A DNA stretch of 64,000 nt from Candidatus Woesearchaeota archaeon (GTDB lineage Archaea > Nanobdellota > Nanobdellia > SCGC-AAA011-G17 > PNOQ01), in assembly GCA_043812195.1 (NCBI GenBank), contig JBDRML010000029.1:32001-96000 (forward strand). The letters run 5' to 3'. Below, piece after piece: positions 10,150 through 58,423 of this stretch. The first letter of the stretch is position 1. Each line of letters begins with the position of its first letter. Made by a program: the position numbers and the translations under genes. The notes beneath the pieces were generated by a model. The model worked only from the letters and a program-made list of their open reading frames with translations, was not told where the DNA came from and made no database searches.

Positions 10150-10270
10150 CTCGCGGTAGCTCAATGGCAGAGTACTCGGCTGTAGATGCTATTCGACTAG
10201 GCGCTTAGCTTTGAATGAAAAATAGCCAGCCGATCCCGAGAGGTTGTGGGTTCAAATCCCACCCGCGAGA
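10150..10270 (+). tRNA. tRNA-Tyr(GTA) with ~49-nt intron at 37/38 (10186-10234)
   Basis: Acceptor CTCGCGG/CCGCGAG with C1-G72, anticodon GTA 10182-10184, T arm GTGGG-TTCAAAT-CCCAC; intron pairs GCTATT/AATAGC (relaxed BHB). Confidence 0.9.
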
Positions 10271-28262: not shown

Positions 28263-29195
28263 ATGAAACTTAAAACAAATCAAATCAAAATAATTTGTAA
28301 TAAACTTAAATGTGACTTAATTAGCGGGCGTTTGCTGGCTCGCGGAAGCCATAATGAAAGTTATTTAATTAAAACGAAAAAGAAGAATTACATACTTAAA
28401 GTAGAGAATAATCCAGGTTACGTTAAGAGAGAATACAAGATGCTTGCTGGTTTAAAAGAAGGTCTTGCTCCAAAAGTTTATTTCTTTGATTCTTCTAGGA
28501 AGATAATACCAAAGCCATATCTAATTGAAGAATTTTTAAAAGGAAAAAATCCACCAAAGAAAGCAAATAAAGGTTTTATAATTCAAATGGCGAAATGGTA
28601 TAAAAAGCTTCATTCAATCAAATCCTTAAAAATACCCAATGATGAGAAGAAAAGAATATATTCATTATTCTACTGGTTTGAATCAAATTATAAAAAATTT
28701 GAAAAAAATAAAACCATGTTGGATAAAAAATTAGGCAAAGAAATATCTGATAAATTTAAACGAGCTTTGGAAATTTGTAAACAAAATGATAAAATATTTT
28801 CAAACATAATTAATTTCTCATTAAATCACAATGATCCCTCTAAAGAAAATGTATTTATTAATAAAAAAAAGATTAGACTGATAGATTGGGAATTTTCTGG
28901 ATTTGGAATTCCAGAAAGAGATATTCTCACTTTTTTTAGGCAATATAAACTAAATAAGAATCAGAAGAATCTATTCCTTAAATCCTACAAATATCCAACC
29001 AAGAGCATTAAAAAGCTTAATGTGTTATTCTTAATACTATTAGCTTCAGATATTAATTATCTGATAAACCGCTTAAATTCTGTAAAAGAAGGAAAAATTA
29101 GTTCTAAACAGCAAAACACAAATGAAAGTTCCCTAAATAAAAGGATTTTGGAGATTTTTTGTATGTTTAAGATAGCTTTAAAAGAAATTGATTAG
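28263..29195 (+). CDS. Aminoglycoside phosphotransferase/choline kinase family protein
   Basis: GSHNESY, HNDPSKENV, IDWEFSG motifs. Confidence 0.8.
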   Translation: MKLKTNQIKIICNKLKCDLISGRLLARGSHNESYLIKTKKKNYILKVENNPGYVKREYKMLAGLKEGLAPKVYFFDSSRKIIPKPYLIEEFLKGKNPPKKANKGFIIQMAKWYKKLHSIKSLKIPNDEKKRIYSLFYWFESNYKKFEKNKTMLDKKLGKEISDKFKRALEICKQNDKIFSNIINFSLNHNDPSKENVFINKKKIRLIDWEFSGFGIPERDILTFFRQYKLNKNQKNLFLKSYKYPTKSIKKLNVLFLILLASDINYLINRLNSVKEGKISSKQQNTNESSLNKRILEIFCMFKIALKEID

Positions 29196-29324
29196 TGTTA
29201 TCAATAATCTTCGGAACTATTATCCAATTTTCTTATAATGCAAGTTTCCCCCTTTACATTACGCATTTAAATACAAAAAAATAAGCAAAAACTTTATAAA
29301 CAATTCCAATTCTCAAATTCTGTA

Positions 29325-32300
29325 ATGGCAGAAAAATCAGTAGAACAAATAAAAAAAGTAATGAATAACCCAAGCCATATAAGAAACATCGCTATCGCAG
29401 CCCATATCGATTTTTTTTGAGATAAATTCTCAAAAGACGAGTGCATGGGAAATGCATAGCACCAGATTCAAGGCTCATTCTAAGAGATGGAACTATGTTA
29501 ACTGCTAAAAAATTATTTAACTTAGCAGAGAAAAAAGGAACAAAATTTGAAGAAACGAAAGACCATATAATTTATGATACTAACTCATTAAATTTAGAAG
29601 CATTTTCCCTAAACAAAACTAATGGAAAATTAGAAAAAAAACCAATACAACTAGCCTGGAAATTAAAAGGTGGGGACTTAATAAATATTAAATTAAGAAA
29701 CAATTTCAACATTTCCACAACACCAGAACACAAATATTTAGTCTTAGAAAATTTAGAGTTTACAGAAAAAGAAGCTAAAGATATAAAATTAGGAGATAGA
29801 ATAATCTGCCCAAGAAAGCTTGAAACTAATTCAAATATTAACATAAAACGCACAATTCTACTAAAATTAGCTGAAAAAAGATTTTACGTTAAAGTAAACA
29901 AAATCTTAGGAGAAAAAATAAAAAAATTCGTTCTGAAAGAAAAAGAAACAATAAAAAAAATAAACAAAGAAATAAAGTATAAATCATTTTATCATGGTTC
30001 ATGGCAAAATAGATATTTATTAAAAGACTTAATAGAAATTTCAAGTTTAATAAATATAAACTTGGAGTATTTGTATAACAATATAGAAACAATAATTTAT
30101 AGAAGCGGAGCTCAAAGAGGAAAAAGCTCGCTGCCAACAAAATTACCACAAAACTTTCAAAACTTTTATTATCTAGCAGGATTGTTTGTAGGAGATGGAC
30201 ATCATAAAAAATTCATAGTCGGAAAAAATGAGTTAAAATCTAAATTTGTAGAAATTTGCAATGAATTAGGAATAAATGTAACATATAGAAATTATGAATA
30301 CAGAACAGAAGAAATAGTAACAAACGCTACCTTATTAGAAATATTAAACTCATTATTTGATTATCCAAAAGTCAAAAAAAGCCATAATGTAAAAATATCA
30401 GAATTTCTTCTACTATCTCCAAAAAAATATTCTTCAAAATTCTTAAGAGGATACTTCGATACTGATGGATGTGTAGAAAAAAGCAGAAGAGCAGTAACAA
30501 TATCGTCTGCCAGTGATAAAATGATAGCAGATTTAAGTATGTTTTTATTAAGATTCGGTTGCATACCAATCATAGAAAAAGACAACACAATAACAATTAG
30601 TGGACAATCCATGATAAATTTTATAGCAGAAATAGGATTTGAAATTAAAGCAAAAATAGCCAAAGCAAACTCCATAAAACAAACAATAATCGGAAGCATG
30701 GTTTCAGATGTTATACCAGTAACACATAGTAACGGAATGATTTCACTACAAAAAAACTTCACCAATTCAGAAAAATTAATTAATTTTTGTGAAAAAAATG
30801 ATATCAGCATAGAAAATATAAGTAAAATATTAAGTAAAGATATCTCATACATAGAAGTAAAAGCTATAGAAACAAAAAATGAAGAATTTGTATATGACTT
30901 CACAGTAAAAGACAACCATAACTTTGCTGCAGAAGGTATGATTATTCATAATACCACATTTTCAGACAATCTTTTAGCAGGTGCAGGCATGATTTCTAAA
31001 GAACTAGCAGGTAAACAATTAGCCTTAGATTTTCACGAAGATGAGGCAACAAGAGGTATTACAATAGATTCAGCTAGCGTATCTATGCTTCACACAGTAA
31101 AGGGAGAAGATTACTTAATCAATTTAATAGACACACCAGGTCACGTAGATTTTGGTGGAGATGTTACTAGGGCTATGAGAGCAGTTGACGGTGCAATTGT
31201 ATTAGTAGATGCAGTTGAAGGAATAATGCCTCAAACAGAAACAGTTCTAAAACAAGCTCTAAGAGAAATGGTAAAACCAGTTCTTTTCATAAATAAAGTT
31301 GACCGTTTAATCAAAGAAGTTAAACTAACACCACAAGCAATGCAAGAAAGATTCATTAAAATTATATCAGACGCTAATGGGTTCATTGAAACTTTTGCAC
31401 CAGACGAATTCAAAAAGAAATGGCAATCAAACGTACAAGACGGAAGCGTAGCTTTTGGTTCAGCATTTCATAATTGGGCATTAAGTTTCCCATACATGCA
31501 AGAAAAAGGAATAAGCTTCAAAGATATTATAGATGCTTATGAAAAAGAAGATTGGAAAATTTTAGCAAAGAAAGCACCATTACATGAGGTTGTTTTGGGT
31601 ATGATAATTAAACACCACGTAAATCCAATCACAGCACAAGCATACAGAATTCCAAAAATATGGAAAGGAGATTTAGATACAGAAATAGGAAAATCTTTAT
31701 TAAATTGTGATCCAAAAGGACCTGTAGCATTTATAGTAACAAAAATAGTAATAGATAAACATGCAGGAGAAGTATCTGCAGGAAGATTATTCTCAGGAAC
31801 ATTAAAACAAGGTGATGAAGTTTGGCTTAACATGGGTAAAAAGAAAGTTAGGTTACAACAGGTATCAATTTACAAAGGCGCACAAAGAACTGCTTTTAAT
31901 GAAATTCCAGCAGGAAACATAGCAGGTTTAGTAGGATTAAAAGATACATTCGCAGGTGAAACTATATCTTCAGAACCAATGGAACCTTTCGAAGCAATTA
32001 AACATATCTTTGAACCTGTAATCACAAAATCCATAGAAGCTAAAAAAGCATCAGACTTAGCAAAATTAATTGATGTTTTAAAACAAGTTGGAAAAGAAGA
32101 TCCAAGTATCAAAATAGAAATCAATGAAGAAACTGGAGAAAATTTGATGCATGGTATGGGAGAATTACATTTAGAGATTATAGAAAACAGAATTAAATCT
32201 GAAAAAGGTTTAGATGTAACAACTTCAGAACCAATCGTTGTTTACAGAGAAACAGTTTCAAAAGTAAGTGCAGAAAAAGAAGGTAAAAGTCCAAATAAGC

Positions 32301-33022
32301 ATAATAAATTCTATATGGTTGTAGAACCTCTAGAAGATAGTGTGTATGATGCAATAAAAGCAGGAGATTTACCAGAAGGTAGAATAAAGAAAAAAGATAC
32401 AGAAACTATTCAAAAATTAGTGAAATTAGGATATGATGCCAAAGAAGCTAAAAATGTAAGACAAATTTACAAAGGAAACATGCTAATTGACAACACAAGA
32501 GGTATTGTTCATATCGGAGAAGTTATAGAAATGATTATGGATGCTTATCAACAAGTTATAGACGCAGGTCCTATTTGTAGAGAACCTTGTGGAAAACTAA
32601 AAGTAAGAATTATGGATATGAGACTACACGAAGATGCAATTCATAGAGGTCCAGCACAAGTTTATCCTGCTATCAGAGAATCAATAAAAGAAGCAATGGC
32701 AGATGCTAAATCTCACTTACTAGAACCTATTCAAATTGTACAAATAGAAAGTCCAGCAGAATATTTAGGAGAACTATCAGCATTAGTTCAAAATAAAAGA
32801 GGACAACTATTAAATGTAGATCAAGAAGGTGAACACATTACTGTAAAAGCAAAATTACCAGTAGCAGAAATGTTCGGCCTAGCATCAGATTTAAGATCAA
32901 CAACATCCGGAAGAGGAGTATACTTCATAGTAGATCAAATGTATGAGAAATTACCAGAAACTCTACAAGAAAAAATCAGAAAACAAATAAGATCAAGAAA
33001 AGGTTTAAGTGAAAACGCTTAA
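29325..33022 (+). CDS. fusA: Elongation factor 2, join(29325..29411,29444..33022), with putative mRNA intron and an intein; ~721 aa after both are removed
   Basis: IRNIAIAAHID + HGK[intein]TTFSD, RGITI, DTPGHVDF, NKVD, GMGELHLE, diphthamide loop HEDAIHRG. Confidence 0.93.
29412..29443 (+). other. 32-nt BHB intron in EF-2 mRNA (putative)
   Basis: CCCAT-ATCG-AT^T-TTTTTTGAGA-TAAAT-TCTCAAAAGA-CGAG-TG^C-ATGGG; removal restores the AHIDHGK P-loop; insert contains in-frame TGA. Confidence 0.82.
29453..30952 (+). mobile_element. Intein (500 aa) with LAGLIDADG homing endonuclease, inserted in the EF-2 P-loop
   Basis: Starts CIAPDS, TTPEHKY block B, YLAGLFVGDG and FLRGYFDTDG, ends VYDFTV..HNF...IIHN followed by Thr. 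Confidence 0.95.
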
Positions 33023-33426
33023 TTTTCTTCTTTTTCTTCAGCAACTTTATTTTCTAAACCATTAGTTTTTTTATTATTCCAATGATTTGGTAAATTTGTA
33101 AATATATTACTATGGTCATCTTTATAATTCTTTAATGTAGCAAATGCACCAACACCAGCAATAGCTCCAAAAATCTCTGGTAAAAGAAGATTATATGCCT
33201 TATTTAACACAGGAATATTCCTTAATCCAGGCATTTGACTAAGAATCGCTAAACCAGCCCTAACACCAAGTATTATACCATCAAGCTCCAAAGCTTCATT
33301 TAAATTAGGATCAGCCCCCACAACAGCTCTTAAAAGCAAACTACTACCATAACCAGGCACAAATGCCCCAAAAAGAGTCATTGAACTATAACCTAAAACA
33401 GCCAATCCTTGTTTCACATATTTCAT
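33019..33426 (-). CDS. Hypothetical membrane protein
   Basis: 135 aa with hydrophobic Gly/Ala/Leu segments. Confidence 0.6.
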   Translation of the reverse strand: MKYVKQGLAVLGYSSMTLFGAFVPGYGSSLLLRAVVGADPNLNEALELDGIILGVRAGLAILSQMPGLRNIPVLNKAYNLLLPEIFGAIAGVGAFATLKNYKDDHSNIFTNLPNHWNNKKTNGLENKVAEEKEEN

Positions 33427-43471: not shown

Positions 43472-44179
43472 ATGAATCTATCAGAAAGAGGAAAAAGGAA
43501 TGTAAGAATAAGATGGAATAGAATACATCAAAAAGAGATTGATTATATAAGGAAAAATTTAGATAAAACTTTTAATTTTAAATCTAGGTTATGTGGTTAC
43601 TTAGCAGGAGATGGCAATATTCTTACTGCTAATAGCAAAACATGTACTCATTATACAATTCGTTTTTTCCCAGATCATTATTCACTAATTAAACCATTTA
43701 AAGAAGCGTTTATCAAAACATATAATAAAAATCCAAAAGTGAAAAAATTAAAAAACTATTATTTTATAACTATTGATTCCAAACCAATAGTATATGATCT
43801 CTTGTCACTAGTTGAATTTGGTACTTCAAATTGGAGTATTCCAAATAAAATTTTAACCAATGATAAAAATAAAATAGAATGGTTAAGAGCATTTTTTGAT
43901 GCTGAAGCACATATTCATGAAAAATATATTAGAATTCAATCAGTTAATGGAAAAGGATTAAAACAAGTAAAAGAATTATTAAACCAATTTTCTATTAATT
44001 CCAAAATTTATGAATACGTTCCAAAAAATAAAAAATGGAATAAGGTGTACATACTAAATATTTTAAGGAAAAAAGATAAAATAAATTATTTAAAATTAAT
44101 AGGATTTAATCACACCATAAAGCTTAAAAAGTTAAATAAAAATCTTGATTTTGCCTTAAATAAAGCCGCGGTCGCGTAA
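43472..44179 (+). CDS. Free-standing LAGLIDADG endonuclease-like protein; 3' end overlaps tRNA-Ser
   Basis: LCGYLAGDG and WLRAFFDAEA motifs; likely ATG 43472 after TATA; stop lies in the tRNA D-arm. Confidence 0.82.
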   Translation: MNLSERGKRNVRIRWNRIHQKEIDYIRKNLDKTFNFKSRLCGYLAGDGNILTANSKTCTHYTIRFFPDHYSLIKPFKEAFIKTYNKNPKVKKLKNYYFITIDSKPIVYDLLSLVEFGTSNWSIPNKILTNDKNKIEWLRAFFDAEAHIHEKYIRIQSVNGKGLKQVKELLNQFSINSKIYEYVPKNKKWNKVYILNILRKKDKINYLKLIGFNHTIKLKKLNKNLDFALNKAAVA

Positions 44180-44282
44180 TCTGGTATCGCACAGATCCTT
44201 AAAAGAAATAAAATTTTTATGGAGTGTAAGCCTGGAAAGCCTGACCCTTTTGGGTGTCTGGGTTCAAATCCCAGTCGCGGCG
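44165..44282 (+). tRNA. tRNA-Ser(GGA) with 35-nt intron at 29/30 (44195-44229)
   Basis: Acceptor GCCGCGG/TCGCGGC, joined stem CAGGC/GCCTG, long variable arm ACCC-TTTT-GGGT; BHB GCAC/GTGT with AGA and AAG bulges. Confidence 0.9.
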
Positions 44283-58230: not shown

Positions 58231-58423
58231 CCTGGTAAAGGGTAATAAGCTATTCGACCATTCAAGTTAGAGTTGTCTAAGTTGTTCCAGTTGGAGTTAA
58301 GATTCAAGTTCCTGTTAAGGTTCAGCCTGGAAAGGCCACCACTTCATTATTCTCATGAGATACTAAATGTTGCAGTTGAATTTTATGTATCAACAGACTT
58401 GTAGCCTAGCCCTTAAGACCAGG
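58231..58423 (-). ncRNA. Putative DGR RNA: template repeat with complementary flanking arms
   Basis: 5' arm CCTGGT-CTT-AAGGG-C-TAGGCTA pairs with 3' arm TAGCTTA-TTA-CCCTT-T-ACCAGG. Confidence 0.6.
58255..58337 (-). repeat. DGR template repeat (TR)
   Basis: 83-bp core with 11 AAY codons; differs from both VRs only at TR adenines. Confidence 0.95.

Follow-up and report, generated by a model that had tools for sequence, protein, structure and literature searches.

The DNA analysed here, called the window below, is a 64,000-nucleotide stretch of a Candidatus Woesearchaeota archaeon (assembly GCA_043812195.1, contig JBDRML010000029.1, positions 32,001 to 96,000 of the forward strand). On its plus strand lies the gene of archaeal translation elongation factor 2 (aEF-2, EF-2 below), in which the codons of the P-loop are interrupted by 32 nucleotides that form a predicted bulge-helix-bulge (BHB) intron (29412-29443). 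The gene starts at ATG 29325, and its exon 1, MAEKSVEQIKKVMNNPSHIRNIAIAAHID (29 codons, 29325-29411), aligns with the N-termini of intact relatives and ends with the first half of the P-loop, closing with GCC CAT ATC GAT, the last base being 29411. Continued into the insert, the frame of exon 1 reads Phe-Phe-stop, with the TGA at 29418-29420, and CAT GGG AAA TGC from 29444 encodes HGKC in a frame shifted by two relative to exon 1. A listing of open reading frames (ORFs) gives a 31-amino acid ORF at 29325-29420 and a 1193-amino acid ORF that begins within the insert. When 29412-29443 were deleted by script, a single open frame of 1221 codons resulted, which includes NIAIAAHIDHGKC. Exon 2 (29444-33022, plus strand) encodes HGK, an intein, the remainder of EF-2 and the stop codon, and contains the Pfam domains GTP_EFTU, EFG_III, EFG_IV and EFG_C. 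Its C-extein matches the aEF-2 profile TIGR00490 with 1021.9 bits over profile positions 32-718 of 720, and the GTP_EFTU profile is matched in the long ORF only from position 17 onward. The insert, its TGA and the frame shift had been described in an earlier note made from the letters of the window alone, and each of these agrees base for base with our reading.

The intein, which that note had overlooked although it read the insert correctly, lies directly after HGK (29453-30952, plus strand), between HGK and TTFSDN. It is 500 amino acids long and includes a LAGLIDADG homing-endonuclease domain; residues 53-504 of the long ORF match Intein_splicing (PF14890, 98.1 bits) and LAGLIDADG_3 (PF14528, 55 bits). 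It has the marks of an intein, being in frame within a conserved motif, with an N-terminal Cys, a C-terminal His-Asn and Thr as the following residue. Its boundaries are supported by the EF-2 of intein-less relatives, which reads AHIDHGKTTFSDN (HGKTTFSDN). The RNA-splice and protein-splice points lie 9 nucleotides apart, and we infer from this arrangement that the gene requires RNA splicing and then protein splicing; the mature EF-2 would have 721 amino acids after removal of the intein.

We then considered the fold of the insert and its junctions. An outer, exon-exon helix pairs CCCAT (29401-29405) with ATGGG in exon 2 (29445-29449), and a central helix of 4 base pairs joins ATCG at the end of exon 1 (29406-29409) to CGAG in the intron (29438-29441), with three Watson-Crick pairs and an A.G. 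Within the intron, an inner stem of 10 pairs, one of them a T.G wobble (29413-29422 with 29428-29437), closes the loop TAAAT (29423-29427). Two bulges of three bases result, ATT (29410-29412) and TGC (29442-29444), and the order of helices and bulges on each strand is that of the canonical 37/38 tRNA intron. The known rule for the tRNA-splicing endonuclease EndA places a cut behind the second base of each bulge, that is, here after 29411 and 29443. A cut by this rule joins GAT to CAT exactly and restores the P-loop AHIDHGK in the 1221-codon frame, as had been proposed in the same note, whose drawing of the BHB has every helix and bulge in its place. The element thus has two three-nucleotide bulges around a 4-bp helix in relaxed form, with the exon-exon (h) and intron-internal (h') helices both present (5 bp and 10 bp); fully canonical 4-bp central helices occur in relatives, e.g., G006, G039, G032 and G207. 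Unconstrained RNAfold recovers the outer helix, three central pairs, the AUU bulge and the 10-bp stem, with an energy of -16.1 kcal/mol (z = -2.72), and an equally good fold arises in 2 of 200 shuffles. The fold in the window alone beats chance modestly, and the more-than-chance case is made by the comparative data. A search of Rfam at the insert returned no family, even at E values up to 5.

Relatives were compared at the same site. In a first sample of 60 relatives, EF-2 was matched in 57 and the P-loop region could be read in 52 (four partial matches at contig ends and one locus ending before the site were left out); nine of these 52 carry a short insert in the P-loop. Another member of the sample, G037 (L030, around 1480-1500; genome 74% complete), is without 10 nucleotides of the P-loop codons, reading NIAI and then IDHGK in another frame. 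An ATAT repeat flanks this gap on either side, and its possible causes are a deletion, an error, or the imprecise loss of an intron that left a scar. The search was also made across 240 genomes of the same order, in 29 families, with the pattern GCNCAYATHGAY-N25-45-CAYGGNAAR, which admits all synonymous codons at the Asp-His boundary, and with the reversed pattern as a control. It matched in 25 genomes and the control in one. After a chance match in an open HAD-like ORF (G110) was dropped, 24 genomes with 23 distinct sequences remained, spread over 13 of the 29 families; G069 and G209 (L061 and L079), placed in different families, were counted as one sequence. These two share 3,052 nucleotides around EF-2, intron included, at 99.93% identity, which points to one contig binned twice or to a very recent transfer. 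All 24 inserts contain an in-frame stop, and their lengths (30-39 nucleotides) fall into all three classes modulo 3 (remainders of 0, 1 and 2 in seven, eight and nine cases). An insert that is untranslatable, falls into any length class and stands at one exact codon boundary of an essential gene that is otherwise conserved, as seen in 13 of 29 families, is neither a pseudogene scar nor an assembly error.

Of 330 genomes sampled from other orders of the same class, three have an insert; two of these bearers are unpublished (G533 and G440), so that one case rests on public data. The named relatives by EF-2 are metagenome-assembled genomes labelled Woesearchaeota, Pacearchaeota, Nanoarchaeota or Nanoarchaeia, at 60-80% identity, in keeping with the placement in DPANN made in the earlier note. 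Two named public records, L117 and L157, also bear the insert; they are identical to sequences already counted and provide names rather than added cases. The view of a single interrupted gene held for the insert itself and missed both a family across many genomes and, as described below, a second gene.

Across the 23 sequences with an insert at the Asp-His boundary, 82.1% of the cells in the proposed helices are paired, against 27.6-44.0% when the partners are slid, and the covariation score is 0.428 against 0.075-0.169 for slid partners, a value reached in none of 500 shuffles. Over all alignments made, pairing was 81-84% against 28-50% slid. The outer helix is paired in 86.1% and the inner in 79.9% of cells; seven of the eight inner pairs are changed on both sides, and the first five show three to five pair types each. 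The most informative pair is the central one between exon and intron, C29408-G29439 in the window, which becomes T-A in relatives: the Ile codon ATC faces an intron G in 14 sequences and ATT faces an A in eight, G153 being the exception. The bulge positions agree in 22 of the 23 aligned sequences, where the restoration of the frame is built into the pattern. When 32 cores from two genes and two sites were taken together, 81.0% of cells were paired against 31.0-50.3% slid, with CG in 16, UA in 10 and GC in five at the central pair. In these alignments, compensatory change upholds the predicted BHB structure in the central and inner helices. A reading of the repeated CGAT as a target-site duplication was rejected, as the exon ATTGAT faces CAAT or CAAG in the intron, a complement and not a copy.

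In the bearers, the exon codons taking part in the helices are biased to the versions that pair, although the pattern admitted every synonymous codon. Ala is GCC in 18 of 23 bearers and in 5 of 37 intron-less genes of the same order, Ile is ATC in 15 of 23 and 5 of 37, Asp is GAT in 23 of 23 and 30 of 37, the second His is CAT in 22 of 23 and 20 of 37, and Gly is GGG in 12 of 23 and 6 of 37; as the sequences compared are related, no test statistic is attached to these counts. The bias arises either from a constraint of the helices on the codons or from an intron that prefers, or moves together with, exactly this site. In addition, the hairpin tip reads RAG, 4-12 nucleotides and CTY in 27 of 35 intron cores (AAG and CTT in 19), which suggests a common origin or a bound factor.

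Inserts were also found at neighbouring positions. A pattern for inserts around the Lys codon, between Gly and Thr-Thr, matched in 7 of 240 genomes and its control in none. Six of these seven can be drawn by hand as a BHB that restores HGKTT: five would be cut after the first base of the codon (central A[CT]GG against TCGT, CCAT, CCAA or CCTT) and one after the second (TGGT against ACCA). A pattern for the His-Ile boundary gave six matches, of which four are intact genes matched by chance and two are inserts (G007 and G003), with GCAC against GTGC and, in the inner stem, ACGA/TCGT against ATGA/TCAT. The G007 intron (L017:1458-1488) opens with TACGAT, a near copy of the exon ATCGAT, with the true ATCGAC downstream of the intron; apparently, this intron has slid 6 nucleotides upstream and incorporated an exon copy in doing so. 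In total, inserts of 30-39 nucleotides in the P-loop codons of EF-2 are present in 33 of 240 genomes, at four adjacent positions within 13 nucleotides.

A second gene is affected as well. The pattern for GHVDHGK matched in 4 of 240 genomes (control, one), and all four matches are aIF2-gamma genes with an insert at the Asp-His boundary, identified by TIGR03680 with 574-585 bits from profile position 16. The inserts measure 30-34 nucleotides on the gene strand (L178:1513-1543, L179:1513-1542, and L180 and L181, both matched at 1513), and their central helices are GTCG against CGAC or CGAA and GTTG against CAAA. The EF-2 intron is present as well in two of these four genomes. By their sequence features, the inserts are one family of putative short introns in the P-loop codons of EF-2 and aIF2-gamma in Nanoarchaeota of the Woesearchaeota/Pacearchaeota type.

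The gene content of the source genome (938 kb, 45 contigs, 90% complete) was then examined. It holds a single EF-2, the next matches being other GTPases at E values of 3e-6 and 3e-4; a second intact fusA that could have supplied the function was looked for and not found in this 90%-complete genome. EndA is present in one copy, in the 1706-1966 region of contig C3, as a 178-amino acid protein with PF02778 and PF01974 (93.8 bits for the latter), and its nearest solved chains are 3iey_A (the alpha subunit of Nanoarchaeum) and 1a79_A (the homotetramer of Methanocaldococcus). One RtcB gene was found, with 480.7 bits. Moreover, in each of two tRNA genes of the window the anticodon arm holds an insert of about 50 nucleotides (10150-10270 and 44165-44282, both plus strand; Rfam 58.2 and 34.7 bits); as these genes carry long inserts, the organism needs a tRNA-splicing pathway anyway. 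ARAGORN with default settings reported no tRNA in the window and missed both genes, and a canonical 37/38 BHB could not be drawn by eye for the tRNA at 10150-10270. Upstream of EF-2, a TATA-box-like element, TTTATAAA (29293-29300, plus strand), was recognised by eye from the archaeal TATA consensus about 29 nucleotides 5' of the ATG, and its position suggests a leaderless or short-leader EF-2 mRNA. Elsewhere in the window, 58317-58423 (minus strand) matches the RT-16 RNA of Rfam with 51.3 bits, barely above the gathering score of 50.

Based on these results, 29412-29443 is very probably a BHB intron in the pre-mRNA of the single EF-2 gene, and the predictions that follow from this claim of the earlier note at the level of sequence (frame, structure, length classes and gene content) all hold. 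From what is observed, namely the sequence anatomy, its conservation and covariation, the enzyme genes, the single copy and the presence in DNA, we infer cleavage, ligation and circularisation as follows. In the transcript, CCCAU of exon 1 would pair with AUGGG of exon 2, the last bases of exon 1, (A)UCG, with CGA(G) near the 3' end of the intron, and the remaining intron would fold into the 10-bp hairpin, leaving two three-base bulges on opposite strands, four pairs apart. EndA would cut after the second base of each bulge, and RtcB would ligate the exons as GAU-CAU, restoring the P-loop; the predicted spliced junction is CATATCGAT joined to CATGGGAAA, without 29412-29443, and the predicted tryptic peptide NIAIAAHIDHGK would span it. 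The intron would be released, probably as a circle. Translation would then yield a precursor of 1221 amino acids, from which the intein would excise itself to leave EF-2.

Several observations weigh against this interpretation. The outermost pair of the central helix is nonstandard (A.G, A.C or A.A) in the window and in 15 of the 23 sequences with an insert at the Asp-His boundary, i.e., the predicted EF-2 intron family is a relaxed BHB at this pair, and the sole EndA gene found is of homotetramer size, a type of enzyme described as strict for the canonical BHB. DPANN alpha4 EndA enzymes with an extra loop have, however, been linked to disrupted tRNA genes in a 2018 paper (PMC5829648). The insert of G153 needs a 4-base 3' bulge to keep the frame and is out of register, and that of G053 has no frame-restoring BHB, as none of the junctions tried that give HGKTT has a 4-bp helix with three-base bulges. 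The G053 insert (L040:2488-2518) consists of 31 nucleotides after HGK, with a 7-bp hairpin, and adjoins seven consecutive A's; it is possibly a substrate of relaxed form, or else the product of a homopolymer error. Given the relatedness of the sequences, counts of covarying cells overstate the number of independent events. The intron lies only 87 nucleotides from the start codon, and splicing must outrun the first ribosome. Lastly, transcripts were looked for and not found: no RNA run was listed as containing 28300-33100, and two metatranscriptome runs, from the same study as one of the DNA runs that contain it, yielded only a few short matches to conserved regions of the gene, with the intron uncovered, which counts neither way.

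It could be argued that the gene is dead or dying, with EF-2 function supplied by a host cell or by a copy missing from the assembly and with the insert as a decaying insertion. The genome is 90% complete in 45 contigs, DPANN archaea depend on hosts, and the gap of 10 nucleotides in G037 affects the same codons. However, the open frame of exon 2 extends over 1193 codons, with 74-80% identity to relatives within its own family, exon 1 is intact and conserved, and 33 genomes of the order retain an insert between intact flanks, its structure preserved by compensatory change; moreover, to our knowledge, import of host translation factors is not known for any archaeon. We therefore consider a dead gene quite unlikely. 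To the same slight degree, the insert might be removed from the RNA by another nuclease and ligase or by a self-cleaving fold rather than by EndA and RtcB. The relaxed A.G in about half of the cases, the strict type of the only EndA gene seen and the G053 insert without a BHB speak for such a route, but 32 nucleotides are too short for the self-splicing intron classes, the Rfam search at the insert was negative, and the geometry of an EndA substrate was found with the right frame in the 35 cores drawn and checked by hand, G153 needing its 4-base bulge.

Translational bypassing, in which the ribosome would leave at GAT, slide over the hairpin and land before CAT, is a little less probable still. 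The inserts resemble the known bypass elements (T4 gene 60 and the mitochondrial byps of Magnusiomyces) in being short (30-39 nucleotides), in forming a hairpin, in having a stop within a few codons of take-off in 24 of 24 cases and in interrupting an essential ORF. Nevertheless, the EF-2 insert is without matching take-off and landing codons: take-off would be at GAT or GAC, and the last three bases of the insert (GTG, TTT, TTA, TAT, GAG, etc.) are never GAY in the 24 sequences, while resumption after the window's only GAC (29437-29439) would lead into a frame that stops at 29457-29459. In addition, the conserved pairing, which is that of exon 1 with the 3' end of the insert, and the two three-base bulges are not needed by bypassing, and the insert also lies inside the Lys codon, in phases 1 and 2. 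Frameshifting and read-through were rejected, as frame 0 stops at 29418, the frame of exon 2 has a TAA at 29423-29425 and insert lengths fall into all three classes. An artefact of assembly or sequencing, for which the metagenome-type assembly in 45 contigs could be cited, is hardly credible, since contigs of two other studies (runs X2 and X3, spanning 29326-29846 and 29326-29782) retain the same 32 nucleotides with no insertion, deletion or joint, where the earlier note would have had the claim fall on DNA lacking the insert, and since 32 other genomes of the order, and 3 of the 330 sampled from other orders, have homologous inserts.

Returning to the BHB intron as the preferred reading, the distribution of the family bears on its history. 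Only 5 of the 24 introns at the Asp-His boundary have their best partner in their own family, and most nearest neighbours are in other families; the best partner of the window's intron, 84% identical, belongs to another family, and the one other bearer of an intron at this boundary in its own family is 53% identical. The aIF2-gamma introns are 65-74% identical to EF-2 introns. An intein stands at the site of the window's intein in 6 of the 24 bearers, and other relatives have the intein without the intron. Neighbours across families, the similarity between EF-2 and aIF2-gamma introns, the codon bias and the patchy presence in 13 of 29 families are hints of mobility. Tentatively, it is possible that the inserts are mobile BHB introns that home to the near-palindromic P-loop coding motif CAY-RTY-GAY-CAY-GGN-AAR of translational GTPases, and that they may have moved between EF-2 and aIF2-gamma, slid among the four positions, spread horizontally among Nanoarchaeota, and carried or selected their flanking codons, with the supply of EF-2 then depending on EndA and RtcB and afterwards on protein splicing.

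Further coding introns were sought in two ways. A genome-wide scan for a BHB that joins ORFs gave 31,440 loose candidates, 237 after a first filter and 82 after a stricter one, and it recovered the EF-2 intron (inner stem 10 pairs, outer 4 of 4); the candidates inspected included no further coding intron, being gene boundaries or open coding sequence, in a scan of low power in an AT-rich genome. A covariance model, R1, scored the EF-2 intron at 41.5 bits and the next match at 20.5 bits. Among the 150 of 2772 first-look candidates scored with R1 in the source genome, also with low power, only the EF-2 intron was found, with three weak matches that interrupt no gene, and in 150 other genomes of the order R1 returned the members used for training and one match inside an open ORF.

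The closest known system is the cbf5 pre-mRNA intron of Crenarchaeota (Aeropyrum and Sulfolobus), reportedly described by Watanabe in 2002 and Yoshinari in 2006. The proposed mechanism is the one of cbf5; new here are the host genes, the phylum, the extent of the spread, the occurrence at several positions and the combination with an intein. The host genes here are EF-2 and aIF2-gamma, whereas there it is a pseudouridine synthase; the phylum here is Nanoarchaeota of DPANN instead of Crenarchaeota; and the splicing of cbf5 is tied to a hetero-oligomeric EndA, whereas one EndA gene is seen here. Moreover, here a catalytic P-loop is split, at four adjacent positions and in two paralogous genes, with an intein 9 nucleotides away in the six cases mentioned. 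For the cbf5 intron, Yokobori 2009 (PMC2738675) describes a patchy distribution, lineage-specific loss and omission by gene callers. That archaeal mRNA introns are rare, with cbf5 as the classic case, fits the literature searched, which gave cbf5 alone: in open full text of PubMed Central and bioRxiv, with subscription journals and supplements outside this scope, no EF-2 or aIF2-gamma intron and no pre-mRNA BHB intron of DPANN was found. In the passages found, two papers on archaeal splicing endonucleases, from 2018 and 2025, refer to no pre-mRNA case other than the cbf5 reports, and a 2018 paper on the evolution of archaeal EF-2 mentions no EF-2 intron or intein.

The inserts are also like the BHB introns of archaeal tRNA and rRNA in motif, cut rule, size range and the presumed enzymes EndA and RtcB, but they differ in that an mRNA is the substrate, in that protein constraint acts on the codons that make up the exon strands of the helices, and in that splicing has to come before translation. 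Relaxed variants and the sliding or transposition of introns have been described for archaeal tRNA genes (PMC5829648). The splicing of HAC1 and XBP1, by IRE1 and a tRNA ligase or RtcB, is similar in its short frame-changing intron, two stem-loop cuts and sealing by a tRNA-type ligase; however, the nuclease there is IRE1, the motif is not a BHB and the event is a regulated stress switch. Lastly, the inteins in the P-loop of translational GTPases are likewise selfish intervening sequences in the most conserved motif of an essential gene, with the difference that an intein leaves the protein, whereas the 32-nucleotide element must leave the RNA.

Overall, archaeal mRNA splicing looks far commoner than the single textbook case suggests, as the findings imply splicing of the cbf5 kind for two essential GTPases of translation in DPANN, in about one in seven genomes of an order. 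Gene callers will render both aIF2-gamma and EF-2, the latter a standard archaeal marker (TIGR00490), as truncated or split genes, and such miscalls affect annotation, phylogenomic alignments and pseudogene counts in DPANN genomes. With four positions, two paralogous genes and a neighbouring intein, the family is in addition a natural data set on the movement of BHB introns. If the splicing proposed here is true, EndA and RtcB would be essential for a core translation factor, beyond tRNA and rRNA; and if the family is indeed mobile, dependence on splicing could tie translation capacity to the tRNA-splicing machinery.

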